A stretch of DNA of 8,707 bases from a virus. The position numbers and the translations under genes were made by a program. Position 1 is the first letter of the stretch. Every line of letters begins with the position of its first letter. The notes below the pieces were generated by a model, which made no database searches, was not told the DNA's origin, and saw only the letters and a list, made by a program, of their open reading frames with translations. The DNA is taken from the UHGV virus genome UHGV-0140516; one strand, 5' to 3'. Of the stretch, positions 1-8,707 are shown in pieces.

Positions 1-693
1 AAGTACTGCCGAAAACGACGATACGCAATCAGCAACGTTCTTGATGATATGGTTGTCGGTGATGTGGGAAAAAAAGCAGAAGTGAGCGAGCGCGTACTAA
101 CAAACAAGGAGCTTGGGGAATTACTCCGCGCCCTGGATGACAAAATATTCCCGCCGTACTACAGCGCCCTAATTCGCCTCCTGATTGTTTTCGGATGCCG
201 TACCACCGAGCTAAGGCGCTCTGAGGTGCAGGAGTGGGATTTTAAAGAAATGCTCTGGACGGTACCGAAGGAGCACAGCAAAACGAAGGTCGCCATATTC
301 AGGCCAATACCGGAAAGCATTTTGCCGTTCATCACGCAGCTGGTGGAGCAGAACAGACACACGGGCTTATTGCTTGGTGAACTGAAAGGACAATCTTCGG
401 TAGCAGAGTACGGAAGAACAGCGCACAGACGAATTAATCAAGCCCCCTGGACGTTACACGATATCCGGCACACATTTACAACCATGCTGAACGATTTAGG
501 CGTGGATCCGCATATTGTCGAGCAGCTTACAGCCCACCAGATGCCAGGGATGCAACGAGTCTATAACCACTCCCGCTATCTTGATGCAAAACGTGATGCT
601 CTTAATCTATGGGTAGACCGTCTCGAGCTTCTCCAGAACAATGATGAAAAAATCGTTGTTATGACCCCGCGAATTTACACCCAAAATTCTTGA
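1..693 (+). CDS. int: Tyrosine recombinase / integrase, P4 family, C-terminal catalytic part (5'-truncated at window edge)
   Basis: Frame 1 is open from base 1 with no stop upstream of the listed Met at 49. The translation contains the tyrosine-recombinase catalytic motifs: Arg in FGCRTTELRR, H-x-x-R in LHDIRHTF, and His plus Tyr nucleophile in VYNHSRY. Stop TGA at 691-693. Confidence 0.85.
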   Translation, partial: KYCRKRRYAISNVLDDMVVGDVGKKAEVSERVLTNKELGELLRALDDKIFPPYYSALIRLLIVFGCRTTELRRSEVQEWDFKEMLWTVPKEHSKTKVAIFRPIPESILPFITQLVEQNRHTGLLLGELKGQSSVAEYGRTAHRRINQAPWTLHDIRHTFTTMLNDLGVDPHIVEQLTAHQMPGMQRVYNHSRYLDAKRDALNLWVDRLELLQNNDEKIVVMTPRIYTQNS

Positions 694-743
694 CAAATTA
701 CGGCTGTTTTTTCTTTAAGAGATTACAGCCGTGAATAAATCGT

Positions 744-813
744 AGAATATCAGAAAATATCTGCAAATATCTTCACTTTATATGTGTCAACCATCGAAAA
801 AATTGAAATATCT
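744..813. promoter_or_regulatory. Array of short direct repeats (RAATATC) at roughly helical spacing in the int-alpA intergenic region
   Basis: GAATATC at 745-751 and AAATATCT at 755-762, 765-772 and 806-813. The first three copies are 10-11 bp apart. The region between the int stop and the alpA start is AT-rich. Function (regulator or arm-type integrase sites) is inferred, not shown. Confidence 0.3.
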
Positions 814-1110
814 TCTTCTGAGTTCTTATTTTCTGTTTCTTGATTATTCCAACACCTGATGGTTTATCTATTTGTTTTTAATAAGATAATTCAAGTATCA
901 TGCCAAATGACGACATTTTTTGTTGCGTCGCTTAAAAACTCGTGACACGATTTTATGAACAGCAGCAAACTCTAGCGAACTTTGACGAACATAAAGTTCA
1001 GAAAGGTTACGTATTCAATTTAAGAGGTGAAAAAAGCTAAGAAGTATTCCTTCCCGTATATCCACAGCGAAACAAAAATTTCTATACGTAAATTTTATGT
1101 AGGGCTTTTT

Positions 1111-1320
1111 ATGCGCGAAATAAATGAAGATCGTGTAATCCGTGAAAAAGAATGCAGAGAGCTAACAGGCGTTTGCCGTACAACTCGTTATGAGATGGAA
1201 AAACAAGGCCGCTTTCCCTCCCGTATCAGTCTTGGAGGTCGTTCGGTTGGCTGGGTTAAGTCTGAGGTTATGGAATGGGTTAAAAGCCGGGATCGCATTA
1301 ATTCAGGAAAGGCAGCGTAA
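1111..1320 (+). CDS. alpA: AlpA-type (MerR-like HTH) prophage regulatory protein / excision-transcription regulator
   Basis: The 69-aa product MREINEDRVIREKECRELTGVCRTTRYEMEKQGRFPSRISLGGRSVGWVKSEVMEWVKSR shows the AlpA pattern (HTH, then FP-x-x-I-x-LG-x-R-SVGW-x-x-E-V-x-EW). ATG at 1111 is preceded by AGGG at 1101-1104. The track start at 1027 is GTG with AAGAGG abutting it at no spacing, so it is disfavoured. Confidence 0.75.
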   Translation: MREINEDRVIREKECRELTGVCRTTRYEMEKQGRFPSRISLGGRSVGWVKSEVMEWVKSRDRINSGKAA

Positions 1321-1710
1321 AGGGGAGCATATGACACATAAAACAAAGGCGACCGGGGGCGGTCGCCAATGGGAAAACACTAAACATAAGCCCGAACATC
1401 ATAGCGATTTGCTGGCTGGTGGGCAATGTGATCAGTGTACTGGCTTGCTGGTGGGCTATTCCTGCTCTTTAGCATCGCCATGCTGCGATGTTTTCCAGGT
1501 ATGCGATCCCATTTTTGTGCGCCTGTACTCTTTAAGGAACTTCTCAAGGACAAACGCACATGGTGCGAATCTCTCCGGTTCATGTTCGTTTACCGCATTT
1601 TTGCGTTGTTTTTTCTTGGATGAGGATAATTTCTTTAATGATTTGTCAGTCATCGTAGATACCTGTAACCCTGTGCGTCACAGTTCACCGCACCACGGCA
1701 CTGGTGATGG

Positions 1711-1890
1711 TTACTCCTGCTCTTTGGCCTTCCGGCGCTGGCGGCGTTTGATCTCGCCACGCATGGCTGTAACGATAAACTGCGCGTCTGTTTCGTTTTC
1801 CTCTTTGACCAAATTCATTTCGCTTAAAACTTCTAGAGGGATTCTAGCCGTTTTTTGTTGTGATTTGTTGTTGGTTGTACCCGTTGGCAT
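1711..1890 (-). CDS. Small Arc/Mnt-like ribbon-helix-helix DNA-binding protein (putative repressor), divergent from the replication operon
   Basis: Internal Met of the 115-aa minus ORF. ATG at 1890-1888 is preceded by a strong SD (AAGGAGG, complement of 1896-1902) at 5-6 nt spacing. The 59-aa product MPTGTTNNKSQQKTARIPLEVLSEMNLVKEENETDAQFIVTAMRGEIKRRQRRKAKEQE aligns with P22 Arc (RWPREVL / AEENGRSVNSEIYQRV versus RIPLEVL / KEENETDAQFIVTAMR). Basic C-terminal tail. Confidence 0.55.
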   Translation of the reverse strand: MPTGTTNNKSQQKTARIPLEVLSEMNLVKEENETDAQFIVTAMRGEIKRRQRRKAKEQE

Positions 1891-1951
1891 TACTGGCCTC
1901 CTTACTGTTAGGTGGCGTTCAGTATACGTAGAAAAAAAAATAAAAAAAGGC

Positions 1952-2002
1952 TTGAAGTGCAAGTCACCTAAAAGTAGCATAATCTTCAAAGGTGACTTGC
2001 AC
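1952..2002 (+). promoter_or_regulatory. Candidate sigma70 promoter for the replication operon, overlapped by a 13-bp perfect inverted repeat (putative operator)
   Basis: -35 TTGAAG at 1952-1957, 17-bp spacer, -10 TAGCAT at 1975-1980 (CATAAT at 1978-1983 as alternative). Inverted repeat GTGCAAGTCACCT at 1957-1969 and AGGTGACTTGCAC at 1990-2002 brackets the -10. On the opposite strand, a TATACT -10 (complement of 1921-1926) lies upstream of the RHH gene. Confidence 0.4.
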
Positions 2003-2083
2003 CTTAAAGACAAAGCCCCGCAAGTGTCGTTACCACTCGCAGGGCTTCTAACCACCAACGATAACGATAGTATCGAGGTAGCT

Positions 2084-2287
2084 ATGAGAAATCATACCAC
2101 ACACCCGCAAGGGCGGGACTCGCACAACCTGAATAAATACATCTGGCGTTTTATCGCCCTGAGCACGGCACAACCGCGCGTGATTACCATTGAGGCCACC
2201 AGCGAACAGGAAGCCCGCCAGCAATCCCCGGCTGGCTGCGTGATGGTATTCGCCGCCCGTATTCGTCAGGGGGTGTGCCATGCCTGA
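2084..2287 (+). CDS. Small hypothetical protein (67 aa), first gene of the replication operon; possibly of the short Icd-like family seen next to P4-type primases (unverified)
   Basis: ATG at 2084 with GAGG at 2075-2078. It is the 3' part of the long 1190..2287 track ORF, and only this part has a start and RBS. Product MRNHTTHPQGRDSHNLNKYIWRFIALSTAQPRVITIEATSEQEARQQSPAGCVMVFAARIRQGVCHA. Its stop overlaps the start of the next ORF (2280/2287). Confidence 0.5.
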   Translation: MRNHTTHPQGRDSHNLNKYIWRFIALSTAQPRVITIEATSEQEARQQSPAGCVMVFAARIRQGVCHA

Positions 2288-2600
2288 TATGTCAAATTAC
2301 CAGTACCTGATTAATCCGCATTTTAACTGTGAGCATGATATGGCTAAAAAGGTTTATTCCGCTGCGGATGGGGCTACTGACAATATATCAATGGCTGTTG
2401 CGTCAATTGGTAGCCTGATGTGGCATGCGTCAGAAAATGAGGACTATGACGAAAAGGCCATGCGCATTGATATGGGTAATATCGGTTTGTTACTGGCAAT
2501 GCTTGGGCAGTTTGATATTTCGTTACGGTGCACCATTGAAAATGCCACAGATGCATTAAATGCCATAAAGAAAGCGAATACTGATTCAAATCGGGGATAA
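2280..2600 (+). CDS. Hypothetical protein (106 aa), unknown function
   Basis: ATG at 2280 overlaps the upstream stop (translational coupling). AGGGGG lies about 10 nt upstream. No recognisable motif. Confidence 0.5.
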   Translation: MPDMSNYQYLINPHFNCEHDMAKKVYSAADGATDNISMAVASIGSLMWHASENEDYDEKAMRIDMGNIGLLLAMLGQFDISLRCTIENATDALNAIKKANTDSNRG

Positions 2601-2606
2601 ATAATC

Positions 2607-2906
2607 ATGAGAACATATTTATCTGGCTTGACTGCCAGCGGTTATGCACACCCCAAAATTATCCCCGGCGCTATTTATCTGGATAAGAACGGTAACAGAG
2701 TAACGGTAAAAGAACTGATGTTTGACCGTGTGTATTTTATTCGTGATGGATATTCATTTCATAGTTCGCTGAACGTGGAGATCTTTATTAGCAGATTCAG
2801 GCGGGAAATCCCGCTTTCCGGAAATAACCATGTGTCATGTCTGGATGTTGATAAAAAACTACAGGAACTGAAAAACATGATTGCCGCGTGGAGAGAGCAG
2901 AAATGA
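2607..2906 (+). CDS. Hypothetical protein (99 aa), unknown function
   Basis: Starts 7 nt after the upstream stop. Its TGA (2904-2906) overlaps the primase ATG (2903-2905) in an ATGA arrangement. No recognisable motif. Confidence 0.5.
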   Translation: MRTYLSGLTASGYAHPKIIPGAIYLDKNGNRVTVKELMFDRVYFIRDGYSFHSSLNVEIFISRFRREIPLSGNNHVSCLDVDKKLQELKNMIAAWREQK

Positions 2907-4720
2907 AAAAAGCGCCAAATTTAAAACACCAGCCGCGTGACAAAATGACGGAAGTCATCATTTTTGCGGGTAGTAATGCGTGGGCACATGCGAAGCAGTG
3001 GCAGGAACAGGACGGGCGACTGGCTGGCGATAACGTGCCTCCTGTCTGGCTTGGAGAGCAACAACTTGCCGAACTGGACAACCTGCAAATCGTACCGGAC
3101 GGACGCTATCGCGTGCGTCTCTATCAGGCGGGGTTATTGCGTCCGGGGCTTGTTAATACCATCGGGCAGAAACTGGCAGTGGCAGGTGTCAGGGATGCTG
3201 ATTATTACCCTGAAGGAATGCACAGCCAGAAACGGGAGAACTGGCGCGAATATCTGGAACGTGAACGGGCAGAGCAGGCGGAAAAGAAAAAGGTAGTTGA
3301 ACTGCCTGTAAAGAAAAAAGAGCGGGTAAAAGACGATAACGCTTCATCACTGGCGCTTAACCAGATGGGAGCAAGTCAACGCGGCGAAGTTCTCCTGGCA
3401 CATTATGGCGGTGAACTGGCGATTCATGCTGACTCTGACACTGTTCACCATTACAACGGCGTTGTATGGGAGCCAGTACAGGATAAAGAATTACAGCGAG
3501 CTATGGCACAGATTTTCATTGATGCGGAGATCAGCTATTCGCAGAACGCCATTAAATCGGCGGTCGATACCATGAAGTTAAGTTTGCCTGTAATGGGGAA
3601 TACAGCCCGTAACCTGATTGGATTCAGTAACGGGGTATTTGATACCAGAACAGGTAATTTTCGGGAGCATAACAAAAACGACTGGTTGTTAATTGCCAGT
3701 GAATTACCTTTCAGCCCACCAGCAGAGGGGGAAACGCTGGCAACACATGCGCCGAATTTCTGGAAGTGGTTACGCCGTTCGGTGGCTGAGAATGACCGCA
3801 AGGCGGATCGCGTACTGGCTGCATTATTCATGGTGCTGGCGAACCGGTACGACTGGCAGTTATTCATTGAGGTAACAGGTCCAGGGGGAAGTGGTAAAAG
3901 CGTGATGGCGGAGATTTGCACCATGCTGGCGGGTAAGGCCAACACAGTATCGGCAAGCATGAAGGCGCTGGAAGATGCAAGGGAACGCGCGTTAGTGGTT
4001 GGCTTTTCGCTGATTATCATGCCGGATATGACCCGCTACGCTGGTGATGGGGCAGGGATTAAGGCTATTACAGGCGGTGACAAGGTGGCAATTGACCCGA
4101 AACACAAAGCCCCCTACTCAACGCGTATTCCGGCAGTAGTGCTGGCGGTTAACAATAACGCCATGTCATTCAGTGACCGCAGCGGGGGGATCTCACGTCG
4201 TCGGGTGATATTCAATTTTTCGGAAGTTGTACCGGAGAACGAACGCGATCCAATGCTGGCGGAAAAAATAGAAGGTGAGCTGGCGGTAGTGATTCGCCAT
4301 CTGCTTACACGGTTTGCTGACCAGGACGAAGCCAGACGCCTGTTATATGAGCAGCAGAAATCTGAAGAAGCACTGGCGATAAAGCGAGAGGGGGATTCGC
4401 TGGTGGACTTCTGCGGCTATCTCATGGCGTCGGTAATGTGTGATGGCCTGTTAGTGGGTAATGCTGAAATTGTGCCATTCAGCCCACGCAGGTATCTCTA
4501 TCATGCCTATCTGGCTTATATGAGGGCACATGGGTTTGGTAAACCTGTAACACTGACGCGCTTCGGTAAAGATATGCCGGGGGCAATGGCGGAATATGGC
4601 AGGGAGTATATGAAACGGAAAACGAAGCACGGTTTTTGTTCAAACGTGACACTGACGGAGGAATCAGAAGACTGGATGCCATCATGTGTATCGGTCACTA
4701 ATGACGATAGTAAAAATTAA
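2903..4720 (+). CDS. P4-alpha-like primase/helicase replication protein (D5-type NTPase)
   Basis: 605-aa ORF. ATG at 2903 is preceded by GGAGAGAG at 2890-2897; the track start at 2888 is GTG. Walker A GPGGSGKS is encoded at 3878-3901, in frame. Followed immediately by the cognate-type iteron array. Large and well anchored. Confidence 0.85.
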   Translation: MKKAPNLKHQPRDKMTEVIIFAGSNAWAHAKQWQEQDGRLAGDNVPPVWLGEQQLAELDNLQIVPDGRYRVRLYQAGLLRPGLVNTIGQKLAVAGVRDADYYPEGMHSQKRENWREYLERERAEQAEKKKVVELPVKKKERVKDDNASSLALNQMGASQRGEVLLAHYGGELAIHADSDTVHHYNGVVWEPVQDKELQRAMAQIFIDAEISYSQNAIKSAVDTMKLSLPVMGNTARNLIGFSNGVFDTRTGNFREHNKNDWLLIASELPFSPPAEGETLATHAPNFWKWLRRSVAENDRKADRVLAALFMVLANRYDWQLFIEVTGPGGSGKSVMAEICTMLAGKANTVSASMKALEDARERALVVGFSLIIMPDMTRYAGDGAGIKAITGGDKVAIDPKHKAPYSTRIPAVVLAVNNNAMSFSDRSGGISRRRVIFNFSEVVPENERDPMLAEKIEGELAVVIRHLLTRFADQDEARRLLYEQQKSEEALAIKREGDSLVDFCGYLMASVMCDGLLVGNAEIVPFSPRRYLYHAYLAYMRAHGFGKPVTLTRFGKDMPGAMAEYGREYMKRKTKHGFCSNVTLTEESEDWMPSCVSVTNDDSKN

Positions 4721-4731
4721 ACTTATGGAAT

Positions 4732-4963
4732 AACTGTTCACCACTGTTCACCCTGTCATAAATATCTTTTATATCAGTATATTATAGGGTGAACAGTTAT
4801 TTATGAACTGTTCACCAAACTATTCACTGTTCACCTTTTTGATTGTTTATTGAGCTTCAAGGGTGAACAGTGGTGAACAGTTGGTGAATAGTTTTTGTGA
4901 AACTGTTCACCCCTTAACATTATGAATTAAAAGATAAAATATCAAAAGGTGAACAGGTGAAGG
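4732..4963. repeat. Replication-origin iteron array (P4 ori/crr type): at least 9 perfect TGTTCACC / GGTGAACA octamers in both orientations with AT-rich spacers
   Basis: Plus-orientation TGTTCACC at 4735-4742, 4745-4752, 4809-4816, 4828-4835 and 4904-4911. Minus-orientation GGTGAACA at 4788-4795, 4862-4869, 4872-4879 and 4948-4955. Degenerate copies at 4821-4828, 4883-4890 and 4956-4963. AT-rich stretches at 4760-4786 and 4918-4946 are candidate unwinding elements. TGTTCACC is the octamer I recall as the P4 alpha-protein binding iteron. Confidence 0.8.
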
Positions 4964-5007
4964 GTTAAAACGCAAAAATTTTAATTTACTGCTGTGAGAT
5001 AAAGCCT

Positions 5008-5253
5008 ATGACAGCGAAGCACACAAAAAAATCACAATCGCACGCCCTTGATTTGACGGAACACTGGTTAAGGGTGTCGATAAAAATCATCGACCGCAAC
5101 GCCGGGGAAGGATATGCGAAAGCACATCCCGAACTGATTAGCGCATTCATGACAACGGCAGCTGCAAACTTTGCCACGCTGACAGAACGGGAGATTGCCG
5201 AAGCGGAACAGGTGACAACCATCAACGTTAAAACCGGAGAGCAGACAGCATGA
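5008..5253 (+). CDS. Hypothetical protein (81 aa), translationally coupled to the SSB-like gene
   Basis: ORF starts just downstream of the iteron array. Its TGA (5251-5253) overlaps the ATG (5250-5252) of the next gene. No recognisable motif; weak RBS. Confidence 0.45.
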   Translation: MTAKHTKKSQSHALDLTEHWLRVSIKIIDRNAGEGYAKAHPELISAFMTTAAANFATLTEREIAEAEQVTTINVKTGEQTA

Positions 5254-5672
5254 CAGCACAGATAGCGGCTTACGGGCGGCTGGTGGCTGACCCGCAGTTA
5301 AAGACCACCAGCAAGGGTACACAAATGACGATGGCTAGTATGGCGGTCCCCCTTCCGTGCAGCCAGGCAGATGACGGAACGGCGACGATGTGGTTATCCG
5401 TCCTGGCGTTTGGCAGACAGGCCGACGCACTGGCAAAACACCACAAAGGCGAACTGGTGAGCGTGGCGGGTAACATGCAGGTAAGCCAGTGGACAGGCCA
5501 GAACGGCGAAACGCGGCAGGGCTGGCAGGTTATCGCAGACAGCGTAATCAGTGCGAGAACGGCGCGACCGGGCGGCAAAAAAGGCCAGCAAGGGCAGGCT
5601 ACTGACGCACTGAACAGGGCAAAACAACAGGCGGGTAACGATGATCCGTACGGGGATAACATACCGTTTTAA
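5250..5672 (+). CDS. ssb: Single-stranded DNA-binding protein family (short SSB-like OB-fold protein with C-terminal DNIPF tip)
   Basis: Aligns by eye to E. coli SSB across the OB fold (G-x-L-x-x-DP; W-x-x-V-x-x-FG-x-x-A; KG-x-x-V-x-x-x-G-x-x-x-x-x-x-WT-x-Q-x-G-x-x-R). Ends in DDPYGDNIPF, resembling the SSB DDDIPF partner-binding tip. Shorter than host SSB (140 versus about 178 aa). Confidence 0.7.
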   Translation: MTAQIAAYGRLVADPQLKTTSKGTQMTMASMAVPLPCSQADDGTATMWLSVLAFGRQADALAKHHKGELVSVAGNMQVSQWTGQNGETRQGWQVIADSVISARTARPGGKKGQQGQATDALNRAKQQAGNDDPYGDNIPF

Positions 5673-5686
5673 GCAACGAGTAACAG

Positions 5687-5710
5687 AAGCCGGAGAAGTC
5701 CGGCTTTTTT
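5687..5710 (+). terminator. Rho-independent terminator after the SSB-like gene
   Basis: Stem AGCCGGA (5688-5694), loop GAAG, stem TCCGGCT (5699-5705), then a T6 run ending at 5710. Confidence 0.7.
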
Positions 5711-5720
5711 ATGCCCCAAA

Positions 5721-5758
5721 AAAAGCCCGATAAGGTCAGAGGGTCTTATCGGGCTTTT
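5721..5758. terminator. Second hairpin with A-run and T-run flanks (possible bidirectional terminator)
   Basis: AAAAGCCCGATAAG (5721-5734), a 10-nt loop, then CTTATCGGGCTTTT (5745-5758). Confidence 0.5.
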
Positions 5759-5838
5759 GCATATGAGGCTTTTATCTAACAGTATGGTGACTACTGTTGC
5801 CGGAAATCATTTCACAATTTGCAACACAACTCAACATT

Positions 5839-5899
5839 ATTGCGTAAAATGAAATCATGATTATAATCACAACTGGATGAACATCCAGTTGTGATTTTT
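5839..5899 (+). promoter_or_regulatory. Candidate promoter of the head-gene operon followed immediately by a 15-bp perfect palindrome and T-run (operator or attenuator hairpin)
   Basis: -35 TTGCGT at 5839-5844, 16-bp spacer, -10 TATAAT at 5861-5866. Perfect inverted repeat AATCACAACTGGATG (5864-5878) and CATCCAGTTGTGATT (5882-5896) with a 3-nt spacer, followed by a T5 run (5895-5899). It sits between the promoter and the RBS of the first head-module ORF. Confidence 0.4.
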
Positions 5900-5923
5900 A
5901 ACGTCAAAGAGGAATTTCCGACT

Positions 5924-6130
5924 ATGGCAGAAGAGAAAAAAGGCGGGGTGACAGTTTACATAAGCCCAGACATCGTGGAGGCGCTCAAGGAACGCCACCA
6001 GCAGAACGTAAAAGCAGGCATTGCGGCAGGACTTGAGCCGCTGGCGATGGTTGAGCCGTCAACAGGCTGGCAGGTACGCGCCTATTTACGCGCGGCGCTG
6101 GGCATGAATCAGACTCATGGGGGTGAATAA
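5924..6130 (+). CDS. Hypothetical protein (68 aa), first ORF of the head module
   Basis: ATG at 5924 with AAAGAGGAA at 5906-5914. The track start at 5891 is GTG inside the palindrome, so it is disfavoured. The stop TAA overlaps the capsid-gene ATG (TAATG at 6128-6132). Confidence 0.5.
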   Translation: MAEEKKGGVTVYISPDIVEALKERHQQNVKAGIAAGLEPLAMVEPSTGWQVRAYLRAALGMNQTHGGE

Positions 6131-7185
6131 TGACAGGCAAAGCAACGGCACTTAACACTAACCAGCTTTTCGCGTACCTGAATCGTGGGGATATTTCGGA
6201 ATTTAAATTCAGTCCGCTGTTTACGTCGCTGTTTTTCCCGAACGTGGCAACCTTCAACACGCAGGACATCATGTTAGATACCCTGGATATTGAAGAAGTC
6301 ACCATGTCGGCTTTTTGTTCGCCTATGGTGGGGAGTCAGGTTCAGCGCGATAAAGGGTACGAAACAAGCACTATCCGCCCTGGCTACATGAAACCAAAAC
6401 ACGAAATCGATCCATCAAAAACCATCATGCGCATGGCTGGAGAAGATCCGGCACAGCTTAACGATCCAACTTATCGCCGTATGCGCCTGATTACTGGCAA
6501 CATGCGCCGCCAGGTAAACGCTATTAAAGCTCGCATAGAATGGCTGGCGGTGAATGCGGTCACGACCGGAAAAAACATCATTGAGGGCGAAGGAATAAAT
6601 AGATACGAAATCGATTGGAAAATCCCGACTAAAAACATCATTACGCAGGGATCGGGCAAAAAGTGGTCTGAGGCAGATAAGGAAACACACGATCCAATCT
6701 ATGACATCGAACTATACACCGATCAGGCTGGTTGCCCCGCCAACGTCATGATTATGGGCGCTGAGGTATGGCGCACGTTACGCAGCTTTAAAAAATTCCG
6801 TGAACTGTACGATCTTTCCCGTGGTTCAGAATCCGCCGCAGAGCTGGCCTGTAAAAACCTGGGCGAAGTAGTGAGCTTTAAAGGCTATCTGGGTGATCTG
6901 GCCCTTATCGTCTATTCCGGCAAATACACCGACAGCGATGGCACCGAAAAATATTTCCTTGAGCCTGATTTGCTTGTCCTGGGCAACACTAACAATAAAG
7001 GGCTGGTGGCCTATGGTGCGATTATGGATCCGGAAGCGGTAAGAACTGGCGCAACGCAAAACATGTACTACCCGAAAAACTGGATTGAGGATGGCGATCC
7101 GGCGATTGAGTACGTGCAGACGCACAGCGCACCGCAGCCGGTACCGGCAGATATTCGCAAATTTGTTACCGTCAAAATTGCTTAA
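6130..7185 (+). CDS. Major capsid protein, lambda gpE family
   Basis: 351-aa product aligns to lambda gpE over its whole length by eye: KFxPLF...LFF near the N-terminus, PGY(V/M)KPKHE, DP-x-x-L-x-DP-x-YRR-x-R-x-I-x-x-NMR, SYKG / SFKG, VVYSG / IVYSG, LGNT, YPKNW and a C-terminal GDPA. Similar length (351 versus 341 aa). Confidence 0.9.
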   Translation: MTGKATALNTNQLFAYLNRGDISEFKFSPLFTSLFFPNVATFNTQDIMLDTLDIEEVTMSAFCSPMVGSQVQRDKGYETSTIRPGYMKPKHEIDPSKTIMRMAGEDPAQLNDPTYRRMRLITGNMRRQVNAIKARIEWLAVNAVTTGKNIIEGEGINRYEIDWKIPTKNIITQGSGKKWSEADKETHDPIYDIELYTDQAGCPANVMIMGAEVWRTLRSFKKFRELYDLSRGSESAAELACKNLGEVVSFKGYLGDLALIVYSGKYTDSDGTEKYFLEPDLLVLGNTNNKGLVAYGAIMDPEAVRTGATQNMYYPKNWIEDGDPAIEYVQTHSAPQPVPADIRKFVTVKIA

Positions 7186-7196
7186 CGGGGGATTCT

Positions 7197-7532
7197 ATGA
7201 ACACTCCATACATTGAGTTATTTGCAGGCAGTCAGCAGGTATCCACGACGCTGGTACATTTTGCCGCTGATGCTGGAGTTATTCAGGAATTTACCCCGCT
7301 GATGCTGGCGGACAATGGCGAGTTTAAGCCGTGGGATGGTCAGGAATCTGGCAAGGCTGTTTATCTGACCTCGTACCCCGTTGACACGTCGACGCAGAAA
7401 TCAGCACAGTGCTATAAGACGGGGATATTTAATATCGCCGCCGTTAACTGGCCTGAGAGCGTCGACACCGATGCGAAAAAATGCGCCGCCTTTGCGGGTT
7501 CTGGCGTATCCGTTCAGCCACTGGCCCGATAA
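7197..7532 (+). CDS. Head decoration protein, lambda gpD family
   Basis: 111-aa product shares with lambda gpD the motifs TPLML, WDG, YK(S/T)G-x-F, WPE and KK-x-x-AFAG. Near-identical length (111 versus 110 aa). RBS GGGGGA upstream. Confidence 0.8.
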   Translation: MNTPYIELFAGSQQVSTTLVHFAADAGVIQEFTPLMLADNGEFKPWDGQESGKAVYLTSYPVDTSTQKSAQCYKTGIFNIAAVNWPESVDTDAKKCAAFAGSGVSVQPLAR

Positions 7533-7544
7533 GCAGAGGGAACG

Positions 7545-7958
7545 ATGGCAACGAATGAAAGTATCATGACGCTACCGCTGGCGAGTAAATTTAAGGCCGA
7601 AGCGCGGGCAATGGCTGACAGAGGTTTATCAACCTACGAGGCCGTATATCAACTTAACAGCCTGGAAGAGAAGGACAAGCCGCGCTCTGATGCGATTATG
7701 GCGCTTGATGAATCTGGCGACTATCAGCCGCTGTTACGTGCAATGGCAAACGTGCCTTGTATCGATGTTGGTACGGCTAAAAGCATCCTTAGCATGACCA
7801 TAGAGCAGGAACGCCAGAAGGTTGCACCAGAGCTTACCGCAGCCTTTGAAAACTTTATGGACATGCACAGCCCGAAAGCCGTATCAGCTGGTATGGCATA
7901 CGCTGGCAGAAACCCGGGCGATGATGGCGACATCGATCGCATACTGAAAACCATCTGA
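7545..7958 (+). CDS. Hypothetical protein (137 aa) between the decoration gene and cos; function unknown
   Basis: Good RBS (AGAGGGAA 5 nt upstream of the ATG). Followed by a strong terminator. No similarity to lambda FI, FII or W that I can see. Confidence 0.6.
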   Translation: MATNESIMTLPLASKFKAEARAMADRGLSTYEAVYQLNSLEEKDKPRSDAIMALDESGDYQPLLRAMANVPCIDVGTAKSILSMTIEQERQKVAPELTAAFENFMDMHSPKAVSAGMAYAGRNPGDDGDIDRILKTI

Positions 7959-7962
7959 GACA

Positions 7963-7987
7963 AGGCCGGAGAAATCCGGCTTTTTTT
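7963..7987 (+). terminator. Rho-independent terminator ending the head-gene operon
   Basis: Stem GGCCGGA (7964-7970), loop GAAA, stem TCCGGC (7975-7980), then a T7 run (7981-7987). Near-duplicate of the terminator at 5687-5710. Confidence 0.75.
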
Positions 7988-8160
7988 ACGGGTCCTTTCC
8001 GGCATATGAACCCGTTACGGGGCGGCGACCTCGCGGTTTTTCGCTATTTATGAGCTTTTTCAGGGTGGTGGTGGTGGTTTTGTTGTTTGCTCTATCTCCA
8101 TGAATAAAAAGGGAAAGATAACACCAACACACCAACCTGAAACCTTGACCAAGTTGGGAT
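7988..8160 (+). other. cos: Lambda-type cos site: cosQ-like element, cosN with a 12-nt cohesive-end sequence identical to lambda, and a divergent cosB-like region
   Basis: ACGGGTCCTTTCCGG (7988-8002) matches the lambda right-end cosQ region. GTTACG then GGGCGGCGACCT (8020-8031) is the lambda cohesive-end sequence. CGCGGTTTTTCGCTATTTATGA (8032-8053) matches lambda left-end bases 13-35 with about one substitution. Downstream (8054-8160) differs from lambda cosB and contains GGTGGTGGTGGTGG (8065-8078) and the oppositely oriented CACCAACACACCAACC (8123-8138). Confidence 0.85.
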
Positions 8161-8164
8161 ATTG

Positions 8165-8707
8165 ATGAAATCGCACCTGATGAACAAAAAAACCATGGCG
8201 CAAAGCTGCCGGGTAAGTGCTACAGCATTCGACAAGTGGGGAGTGACTCCCGTTGAACGTAAAGGCCGTGAGGCGTTTTATGATGTTGCCAGCGTGATAG
8301 ACAATAGGGTTAACAATGCAATTAGCCAGCTTACAAACGACAAAGGCGAGATTGATGATGATGAACTCTTACGAGTCAGGATCAGATTACTGACAGCACA
8401 GGCGGAGGCGCAGGAACTTAAAAACGAGCGCGATCGCGGTGACGTGATTGATACAGAGTTTTGCATGTACGCCCTTTCAAAACTGGCGAGTCAGATTTCA
8501 TCAATCATGGACAGCCTCCCGCTTACTATGCAAAGGAGCTTCCCACAGATGACCCCCGTCATGCTGGATGGCCTGAAAAAAGAAGTTGTCAGAGCCTGTA
8601 ACGCATGCACAAAACTTGATGAAAACATCCCGCGAATGCTGTCCGATTATCTGATGGAAACTACCGGAAATGTGCCTGATAAGTTTCAGCCGGATAAAGA
8701 CAAGTAA
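8165..8707 (+). CDS. Terminase small subunit, lambda Nu1 family
   Basis: Lambda Nu1 LTRAQADAQELKNARDSAEVVETAFCTFVLSRIAGEIASILDGLPLSVQRRFPE...LDELIPGLLSEY aligns with LTAQAEAQELKNERDRGDVIDTEFCMYALSKLASQISSIMDSLPLTMQRSFPQ...LDENIPRMLSDY. The N-terminal NKK...wHTH region is more divergent. First ATG is at 8165; the track start at 8162 is TTG; the ATG at 8180 matches the Nu1 N-terminus better. Position just downstream of cos, as in lambda. Confidence 0.85.
   Translation: MKSHLMNKKTMAQSCRVSATAFDKWGVTPVERKGREAFYDVASVIDNRVNNAISQLTNDKGEIDDDELLRVRIRLLTAQAEAQELKNERDRGDVIDTEFCMYALSKLASQISSIMDSLPLTMQRSFPQMTPVMLDGLKKEVVRACNACTKLDENIPRMLSDYLMETTGNVPDKFQPDKDK

Follow-up and report, generated by a model that had tools for sequence, protein, structure and literature searches.

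A Gram-negative phage-inducible chromosomal island of Escherichia coli carrying a P4-like replicon, a lambda-type cos core and a Nu1-family small terminase

The 8,707-nt virus genome UHGV-0140516 (the whole stretch of DNA that was analysed, below termed the window) very probably represents an 8.7-kb part of a Gram-negative phage-inducible chromosomal island (PICI) of Escherichia coli that measures 10,669 bp, is of the EcCIIHE3034/EcCICFT073 type and lies at the 3' end of yljB; this degree of confidence refers to the best explanation as a whole, including the packaging model developed below. The window is 100% identical to parts of two public E. coli contigs, namely L013:7099-15805 (a metagenome assembly) and L014:7099-15805 (GCA_031857215.1). 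An earlier note on this DNA, made from the letters alone, had read it as a chimeric satellite in which a P4-type replicon is fused to lambda-type cos and head genes and which makes, or co-makes, its own capsid. Gene calling from six-frame open reading frames (ORFs) and profile searches (Pfam, PHROG) yielded one co-oriented block with the following features:

1..693, + strand: tyrosine integrase, 3' part of the gene (230 codons; Pfam Phage_integrase, E 6e-19)
1111..1320, + strand: alpA, 69 aa (Pfam Phage_AlpA, E 1.6e-17)
1456..1653, - strand: small antisense ORF, 65 aa (PHROG 21027, E 5e-49; also called as a gene in L013)
1711..1890, - strand: YlcI/YnfO-family small protein, 59 aa (PHROG 949, E 1e-18)
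2084..2287, + strand: Icd-like protein, 67 aa (PHROG 6196, E 1e-46)
2280..2600, + strand: orf106 (PHROG 15327, E 6e-71; no Pfam match)
2607..2906, + strand: DUF4222 protein, 99 aa (Pfam DUF4222, E 8e-17)
2903..4720, + strand: Pri/Rep, 605 aa (D5_N, DUF5906, Pox_D5)
4735..4955, both strands: replication origin, an AT-rich iteron cluster with copies of TGTTCACC directly 3' of pri
5008..5253, + strand: orf81 (PHROG 1231, E 2e-49; 88% identical to its EcCICFT073 neighbour)
5250..5672, + strand: single-strand binding protein (SSB), 140 aa (Pfam SSB, E 4e-16)
5924..6130, + strand: orf68, a homolog of c1498 and the first gene of the head block (PHROG 3255; 93% identical to EcCICFT073 c1498)
6130..7185, + strand: major capsid protein homolog (MCP), 351 aa, gpE family (Pfam Phage_cap_E, E 3e-52)
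7197..7532, + strand: head decoration protein homolog (Dec), 111 aa, gpD family (Pfam HDPD, E 3e-18)
7545..7958, + strand: orf137, a homolog of c1501, scaffold-like (PHROG 1999, E 7e-62; PHROG 53 at the C-terminus, E 1e-8)
7962..7988, + strand: terminator-like hairpin closing the head operon, GCCGGA-GAAA-TCCGGC followed by T7 (inverted repeat I4, and direct reading of the sequence)
7988..8053, + strand: lambdoid cos core (cosQ-like block 7988-8002, 12-nt cohesive-end sequence cosN 8020-8031, I2-like part to ~8053)
8058..8160, + strand: island-specific cosB with three R-like boxes
8165..8707, + strand: Nu1-type small terminase (TerS), 180 aa (Pfam Phage_Nu1, E 1e-22), its stop codon being the last triplet of the window

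The boundaries of the element lie outside the window and can be read from L013, where 22-bp att repeats (ATAGATGATAGTTAT[C/T]TATCAT) at positions 6365 and 17034 enclose a unit of 10,669 bp by comparison with the empty K-12 site. The att core is ATGATAGTTAT, and the insertion point is the 3' end of yljB in the cspD/yljB-clpS spacer, with macB-cspD-yljB on one side and clpS-clpA on the other. The direct repeats that the earlier note had suggested looking for are accordingly in place, while the tRNA or tmRNA target it had considered typical is not borne out: a scan of the window detected neither tRNA nor tmRNA, hence no tRNA target. The complete integrase gene (412 aa, L013:6553-7791, with Arm-DNA-bind_3 and Phage_integrase domains) begins 546 nt before position 1 of the window. 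Within the island, next to attL and attR and likewise outside the window (L013:6390-6560 and 16905-16965), GGTGTAGTTAAT tandem pairs and TGTTCG repeats are found, which are likely arm-type Int sites; CGGTGTAGTTAATGGTGTAGTTAATT, given as 'att core' of another island, EcCIDI14 (PMC6092414 Table S1), also occurs in the island arms. At the other end, TerS is followed by one 98-aa ORF (orf98), about 700 gene-free bp and then clpS. Neither the gene list of the 10.7-kb island nor tblastn searches with lambda A, B, C, W and FII revealed a large terminase (TerL), portal, protease, HNH, head-tail connector, tail or lysis gene. Of the points that the earlier note had proposed to check downstream, the absence of tail and lysis genes was thus borne out, whereas TerL, portal and protease are not there. 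A complete lambdoid prophage (immunity, lysis, tail, full head set) was not found in the island flanks either, and since these hold att repeats and no adjacent prophage, the scenario named in the earlier note as fatal to its reading, an int/primase block inserted beside such a prophage, fails.

Taken as a whole, the island displays the hallmarks by which PICIs are recognised: it is an att-bounded element within the range of ~8-12 kb with the integrase at its left end; alpA and a co-oriented pri-rep gene precede the origin (Pfam AlpA; D5_N/DUF5906/Pox_D5; iterons directly 3'); tail and lysis genes and a complete head-packaging set are missing from the entire unit; and a cos site is combined with either Rpp or TerS, here a lambda-type cos core with a Nu1-family TerS. 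The 180-aa TerS does not conform to the Rpp type, which is defined by ~144-153 aa, a winged helix-turn-helix (wHTH), no TerL-binding tail and a position downstream of cos. The core set by which SatelliteFinder recognises PICIs consists of integrase, AlpA, primase-replicase, capsid homolog and small terminase (PMC10085698).

The closest described relative is EcCIIHE3034 (NC_017628.1:920272-930825; PMC6092414 Table S1), which agrees with the island in att site, att core ATGATAGTTAT and size and whose genes follow one another in the same order, with capsid, decoration, orf137, cos and a TerS of 180 aa among them. The encoded proteins are 99% (Int), 87% (AlpA), 93% (MCP), 97% (Dec), 94% (orf137) and 87% (TerS) identical; the integrase, by comparison, shares 23% with P4 Int. 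EcCIIHE3034 differs in possessing another Pri allele (48% identity), no TGTTCACC iterons, other small genes between alpA and pri and a second, inverted cos 3' of TerS (L017, minus strand, ~10378) with a cosB like phage 21 R3, which is absent from the window's island with its single cosN. The model Gram-negative PICI EcCICFT073 (PMC6092414, PMC6739421) is syntenic from int to the cos core, with 92% DNA identity across the head block (MCP 94%, Dec 96%, orf137 95%) and the same cosQ-cosN-I2 core. Downstream of cos, however, the two part: EcCICFT073 carries RppA (144 aa), which heterodimerises with the helper TerS (PMC6739421), and a single-R cosB, whereas the island has a full-length Nu1-type TerS and a three-box cosB. 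Transfer of EcCICFT073 depends on the TerS of its helper, being lost with phi80 delta-terS. Peculiar to EcCICFT073 are also its att site (ycfD-phoQ), another Pri allele, perC and an inverted cos2 downstream of Rpp (L005, minus strand, ~33309). Because att site, gene order and identities match catalogued PICIs, the window is a member of a known satellite family and not a new chimera; in the 2018 catalogue of Fillol-Salom et al. (PMC6092414), an island agreeing in integrase, att site and gene order is already listed. The mosaic of a P4 replicon with a lambda-type head and cos is therefore real as observed in the earlier note, yet it is standard Gram-negative PICI architecture (PMC6092414; PMC10085698) and no new fusion, and the reading as an integrative satellite that brings its own replicon along with a lambdoid cos and a Nu1-type TerS is borne out by the att repeats and the gene list of the whole island. 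For relatives of the island, helper-dependent induction, replication, packaging and high-frequency transfer have been demonstrated (PMC6092414).

The resemblance to P4 extends over the Int family, Vis/AlpA, an Icd-like gene, an alpha-type superfamily 3 (SF3) helicase with origin-binding domain and the TGTTCACC iteron; the homology of Int, AlpA and Pri-Rep was already noted when such islands were compared with P4 in 2018 (PMC6092414). By BLASTP, the island AlpA is 87% identical to that of EcCIIHE3034, 56% to that of EcCICFT073 and 40% to P4 Vis, and by analogy (PMC6092414) it presumably acts as activator of the island cycle. Nine exact TGTTCACC octamers and one near-copy lie on both strands between 4735 and 4955. 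With one mismatch allowed, the window holds 21 copies as compared to 6.9 +/- 2.7 in shuffled sequences (at least 21 in 0/200 shuffles), which upholds the integrase, AlpA and iteron calls of the earlier note together with the Pfam matches. The octamer is the one labelled 'ori type 1 repeat' in the P4 record (P4 ori and crr), and positions 4857-4929 share 79% identity with P4 ori over 75 nt. Residues 150-600 of Pri are 51% identical to residues 320-771 of P4 alpha (helicase and C-terminal domain; BLASTP, E 2e-162), and in the protein a Toprim-like N-terminal domain of 135 aa precedes a P4-alpha-like SF3 helicase, which is followed by an origin-binding domain at the C-terminus. The 'primase/helicase' assignment consequently holds for the helicase and origin-binding part, to which the likeness to alpha is confined, while the Zn-ribbon and canonical Toprim primase domains of P4 alpha are missing, the Toprim-like domain in their place being without the acidic motifs. 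The N-terminal module of Pri is also found in E. coli in fusion with helicases of other types. The iterons are restricted to islands with the same Pri allele (they are missing from EcCICFT073 and EcCIIHE3034, in which Pri shows 48% identity), and protein and iteron therefore travel together; an origin-recognition module of P4-alpha-type C-terminal domain and TGTTCACC iterons is exchanged as a unit among islands.

The packaging site combines a lambda-like core with an island-specific cosB. In a side-by-side comparison, cosN (8020-8031) is identical to lambda and phage 21 in 12/12 positions, and the cosQ-like block ACGGGTCCTTTCCGG (7988-8002) is identical to lambda, in accordance with the near-identity to lambda noticed earlier; by megablast, the cos core matches lambda-like phages and the cos of phage 21, which is annotated. 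Likeness to the phages and to EcCICFT073 ends at ~8061-8065. The adjoining cosB (8058-8160) is conserved among 7 islands of the TerS type, which represent four att sites, and comprises an inverted pair (8058-8070 / 8130-8142) as well as three R-like boxes of the pattern ARGKTGGKR at 8062-8070 (+), 8130-8138 (-) and 8151-8159 (+), the only three matches in the window. This arrangement echoes the R3-(I1)-R2-R1 layout of lambda-like phages with its inverted R2; a scan for the IHF consensus gave no site between the R-like boxes. A TTGTTGTTT run in cosB resembles R3 of N15 (bp 48-60, GAGGTTGTTGTTT).

Judged by its sequence, TerS is a full-length lambda Nu1-family small terminase. It scores 81 bits against Phage_Nu1 (gathering cutoff 30) and matches PHROG 57 with E 6e-52, is 37% identical to lambda Nu1 over 179 aa (E 3.5e-34) and 47% to N15 gp1, the best phage TerS, and can be aligned over its entire length with Nu1, phage 21 gp1 and N15 gp1, including the N-terminal wHTH and the C-terminal region. 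Identity in the DNA-binding domain amounts to 30/55 residues for N15, 18/55 for lambda and 15/55 for phage 21, and in the central oligomerisation region to 36-37/85, about equal for all three. The C-terminal motif LDENIPxxLSDYL (LDENIPRMLSDYL) is like LDExIPGLLxxYI of lambda and N15 and unlike phage 21; in phages, the TerS C-terminus binds TerL (PMC9026076). The gene is under purifying selection (dN/dS, the ratio of nonsynonymous to synonymous substitution rates, 0.15-0.26). Comparison of TerS with sequences of solved structures returned nothing significant, and no similarity to RppA is detectable.

In the life cycle that we propose, a lambdoid helper phage would switch on island alpA, as in EcCICFT073 (PMC6092414, PMC6739421), after which the island would excise through Int and replicate from the TGTTCACC iteron origin by means of its P4-alpha-like helicase/origin-binding protein and SSB to form concatemers, both steps again by analogy with EcCICFT073. 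The subsequent packaging steps are deduced from the anatomy of the island. With its N15-like winged-helix domain and lambda/N15-like tail, the island TerS would bind the island cosB, whose boxes are placed like lambda R3-R2-R1, and would bring the helper TerL to the lambda-type cosN/cosQ, a cos counterpart of the TerS strategy of Staphylococcus aureus pathogenicity islands (SaPIs). In pac-type SaPIs, the satellite TerS steers the TerL of the helper towards satellite DNA (PMC6739421), a logic also proposed here for the island. SaPIs, however, package headfuls from pac, have a TerS of an unrelated family and block the phage TerS with Ppi, whereas the island relies on cos and a TerS of the Nu1 family, without an identified Ppi analogue. 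Island DNA would then enter helper-built heads, and the TerS route would replace the Rpp-TerS trick of EcCICFT073. Four copies correspond to 42.7 kb or 88% of the lambda genome, so that probably about four island copies would fill one lambda-sized head. Packaging from cos via a lambdoid helper is likely, and the helper class is also indicated by genomic context (see below).

Several observations weigh against this scheme. EcCIIHE3034 and EcCI18098, which share the att site, transferred poorly, giving only about 10-100 transductants with their resident prophages (PMC6092414 Table 1), and the searchable literature holds no experiment on the island or its TerS, nor on any TerS-bearing cos PICI. 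In addition, the R-box pattern ARGKTGGKR was chosen post hoc, after the sequence had been seen, and the N15-R3-like run lies ~9 bp farther from cosN than R3 does in N15. At the very C-terminus of TerS, ~12 residues are without equivalent in the phage proteins, and its putative binding to TerL is suggested by a partial similarity of motifs.

The gpE, gpD and Nu1 homologs named in the earlier note were all upheld by the profile searches listed above. MCP is 43% identical to lambda gpE and 94% to EcCICFT073 c1499 (dN/dS 0.10-0.15), and Dec 37% to lambda gpD and 96% to c1500 (0.07-0.11); the ratios of orf68 and orf137 are ~0.2 and 0.19-0.39, respectively. With dN/dS of 0.07-0.39 for the head and TerS genes overall (computed against three relatives), orf68, MCP, Dec, orf137 and TerS are under purifying selection and hence maintained genes. 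The third head protein, orf137, is by sequence a homolog of the C-terminal two-thirds of a lambdoid scaffolding protein (lambda Nu3/phage 21 gp6): its family, PHROG 1999, is also matched by phage 21 gp6 (2e-69) and lambda Nu3 (3e-26), and residues 49-131 are 36% identical to gp6 115-192. Direct BLASTP against lambda Nu3 is weak (E 0.025), and the scaffold link is carried by gp6 and the PHROG cross-matches. A word-indexed homolog search retrieved only close E. coli relatives, to which an exhaustive HMMER search added a 134-aa relative (39% identity) and a 195-aa scaffold-like protein (E 5e-7) and nothing else. The homolog c1501 was without assigned function in the 2018 tables (PMC6092414), and the NCBI label 'head-tail connector protein' probably stems from the old 'preconnector' name of gp5/gp6.

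Transfer of EcCICFT073 remains intact when c1499 or c1500 is deleted or when c1501 carries an insertion (c1501::tetA), interference is unaffected by deletion of c1499 or c1500, and the island has been reported in phage-sized capsids (PMC6092414, PMC6739421). Capsid-forming PICIs (cf-PICIs; prototype EcCIEDL933, bioRxiv 10.1101/2022.09.08.507074) are similar in their int-alpA-rep backbone and in having their own capsid and TerS distant from phage versions, but measure ~15 kb and additionally encode protease, portal, head-tail connectors, HNH and TerL, none of which the island possesses. The lack of portal, protease and TerL rules the island out as a cf-PICI. Although a satellite, it is not one of the capsid-forming kind, and the proposal of an own capsid in the spirit of such islands is not supported, also in view of the dispensable capsid genes of EcCICFT073. 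On their own, the MCP, Dec and scaffold homologs cannot form a capsid; most likely, they modulate the assembly of helper heads or interfere with it. Three head-assembly homologs, including a previously unannotated Nu3-like scaffold, are thus kept under purifying selection in islands whose model member shows no phenotype for them.

A weaker form of the idea in the earlier note would be a capsid-forming or capsid-remodelling satellite, in which island MCP, Dec and Nu3-like scaffold use the helper portal and protease to form satellite-sized heads holding 1-2 island genomes. The three genes and orf68 form one operon just 5' of cos under the selection described above, the head proteins are 36-46% identical to phage counterparts versus 94-96% among islands and are therefore maintained as island genes, and the capsid homolog Ccm of SaPIbov5 makes small capsids (cited in PMC6092414). 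The missing portal, protease, TerL, HNH and connector as well as the intact transfer of EcCICFT073 head-gene mutants and the phage-sized capsids reported for EcCICFT073, however, leave this an unlikely explanation. We give no more credit to the idea that the island TerS acts like Rpp, i.e., forms mixed oligomers with the helper TerS via its central domain and poisons phage cos recognition while the helper TerS still brings TerL. Such a function would be consistent with the central region being similar alike to lambda, 21 and N15 TerS, with the proposed descent of Rpp from TerS (PMC6739421) and with the location of terS in the slot of rppA downstream of the same cos core. Against it, Rpp proteins of 144-153 aa lack the TerL-binding tail (PMC9026076), whereas the island TerS is of full length, keeps the lambda/N15-like C-terminal motif and has no detectable similarity to RppA.

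Two further explanations are very improbable. One is a decayed lambdoid prophage remnant beside an unrelated P4-like insertion, as might be suspected where lambda-family head and packaging genes adjoin integrase, regulator and replicon genes of the P4 family. Yet a single att-bounded 10.7-kb unit with host genes on both sides, an architecture that recurs at several att sites, a TerS module present in 766/5,426 genomes and genes that are all intact and under purifying selection, with the nearest phage TerS only 47% identical, hardly allow for decay. The other is a P4-like satellite exploiting a P2-type helper, for which the 51% identity of Pri to part of P4 alpha, the identical iterons, the 79% ori match, the Vis-like AlpA and the Icd-like gene could be quoted. 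P4, though, is equipped with a Zn-ribbon/Toprim primase domain, with Sid, Psu, Delta and Epsilon and with a cos of the P2 type, and it uses P2 capsid proteins. In the island, BLASTP gave no homolog of P4 sid, delta, psu or epsilon at E<=0.01 (for the first three in agreement with the earlier note) and the 19-nt cos of P2/P4 was not found; its cos is of the lambda type and the alpha primase domains are missing, which makes a P2-type helper scarcely credible. We accordingly retain packaging by a lambdoid helper through the island's own TerS.

The syntenic counterpart of the ORF at 1711..1890 is annotated YlcI/YnfO in EcCICFT073 and in the related island L001, and the Icd-like protein shares 96% identity with the 'host cell division inhibitor Icd-like protein' of IHE3034. 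A 365-aa ORF (1190-2287) spanning the alpA-icd region was rejected as spurious, having no family match and overlapping four real small genes on both strands. Pfam and NCBIfam searches with orf137, orf68, orf81, orf106 and orf98, up to E<=10, provided nothing usable. The 250-bp spacer between ssb and orf68 (5673-5923) is gene-free, with a weak promoter-like site (5811-5840) and sub-threshold Rfam matches only; in EcCICFT073 and L001, the accessory gene perC occupies this position. An Rfam scan of the window at E<=1 gave three sub-threshold chance matches alone and no P4 CI-like or other known RNA. Consensus scans for promoters and terminators found fewer sites than in shuffled sequences and their results were not used; the hairpin at 7962..7988 is not among the sites of the simple terminator scan.

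Parts of the window match 2,306/5,426 complete E. coli genomes. By megablast, the cosB-TerS module (window 8066-8707) is present in 766/5,426 and the rppA region (L005:32600-33100) in 97, a count of Rpp that RppC-type islands escape. The same island architecture is found at the att sites cspD-clpS, phoQ, tqsA, smrA and ung, and near-identical TerS (98-100%) is also paired with other Pri alleles and other att sites. In L008 and L009 (7998-9784), TerS and cosB are 98-100% identical but joined to a different head module, the module boundary being at cosQ; this alternative module encodes a 346-aa MCP, a 113-aa Dec and, in place of orf137, a 127-aa protein with a Phage_AlpA domain. In E. coli A33 (L002, NZ_CP028742.1 4254036-4285422), at least three head-to-tail copies (int...TerS) of a related island occur with a period of ~10.6 kb, either a genuine tandem array or an artefact of long-read assembly, many genes being frameshifted.

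With regard to the helper, 79/80 IMG/VR loci with the island TerS have no adjacent TerL, and at least 16 of the 80 sit inside the portal (B) or capsid (E) gene of lambda-like prophages with 96-100% identity to lambda at the protein level. The embedded-island loci are L039-L046, L055, L060, L065, L072 and L078-L086, L041 being the right half of an island only, between portal fragments. Helper-embedded PICIs have been described (PMC10111431), and the pattern in IMG/VR matches. This embedding in lambda-like prophages points to lambda-like helpers. EcCICFT073, for its part, lies at 1.378-1.389 Mb of CFT073, with a 21-like prophage at 1.395-1.44 Mb.

As a discovery, the island carries little weight, its class having been catalogued since 2018 and its five-component architecture being the very search model of SatelliteFinder. 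Some value remains in three points: packaging, where the experimentally solved Rpp mechanism covers a minority of islands and the far commoner TerS version is without published mechanism in the searchable literature; the three head-assembly homologs retained under purifying selection; and the origin-recognition module that islands exchange as a unit. We tentatively suggest, as a possibility short of an even chance, that in TerS-type E. coli PICIs TerS bypasses the helper TerS and delivers the helper TerL to a hybrid cos, composed of lambda cosN/cosQ and an island cosB with R3-R2-R1-like layout, and that MCP, Dec and scaffold co-assemble into or resize heads with the right helper. If TerS indeed acts by such a bypass, the Rpp mechanism would be the minority solution among these satellites (97 complete E. 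coli genomes with Rpp versus 766 with TerS).

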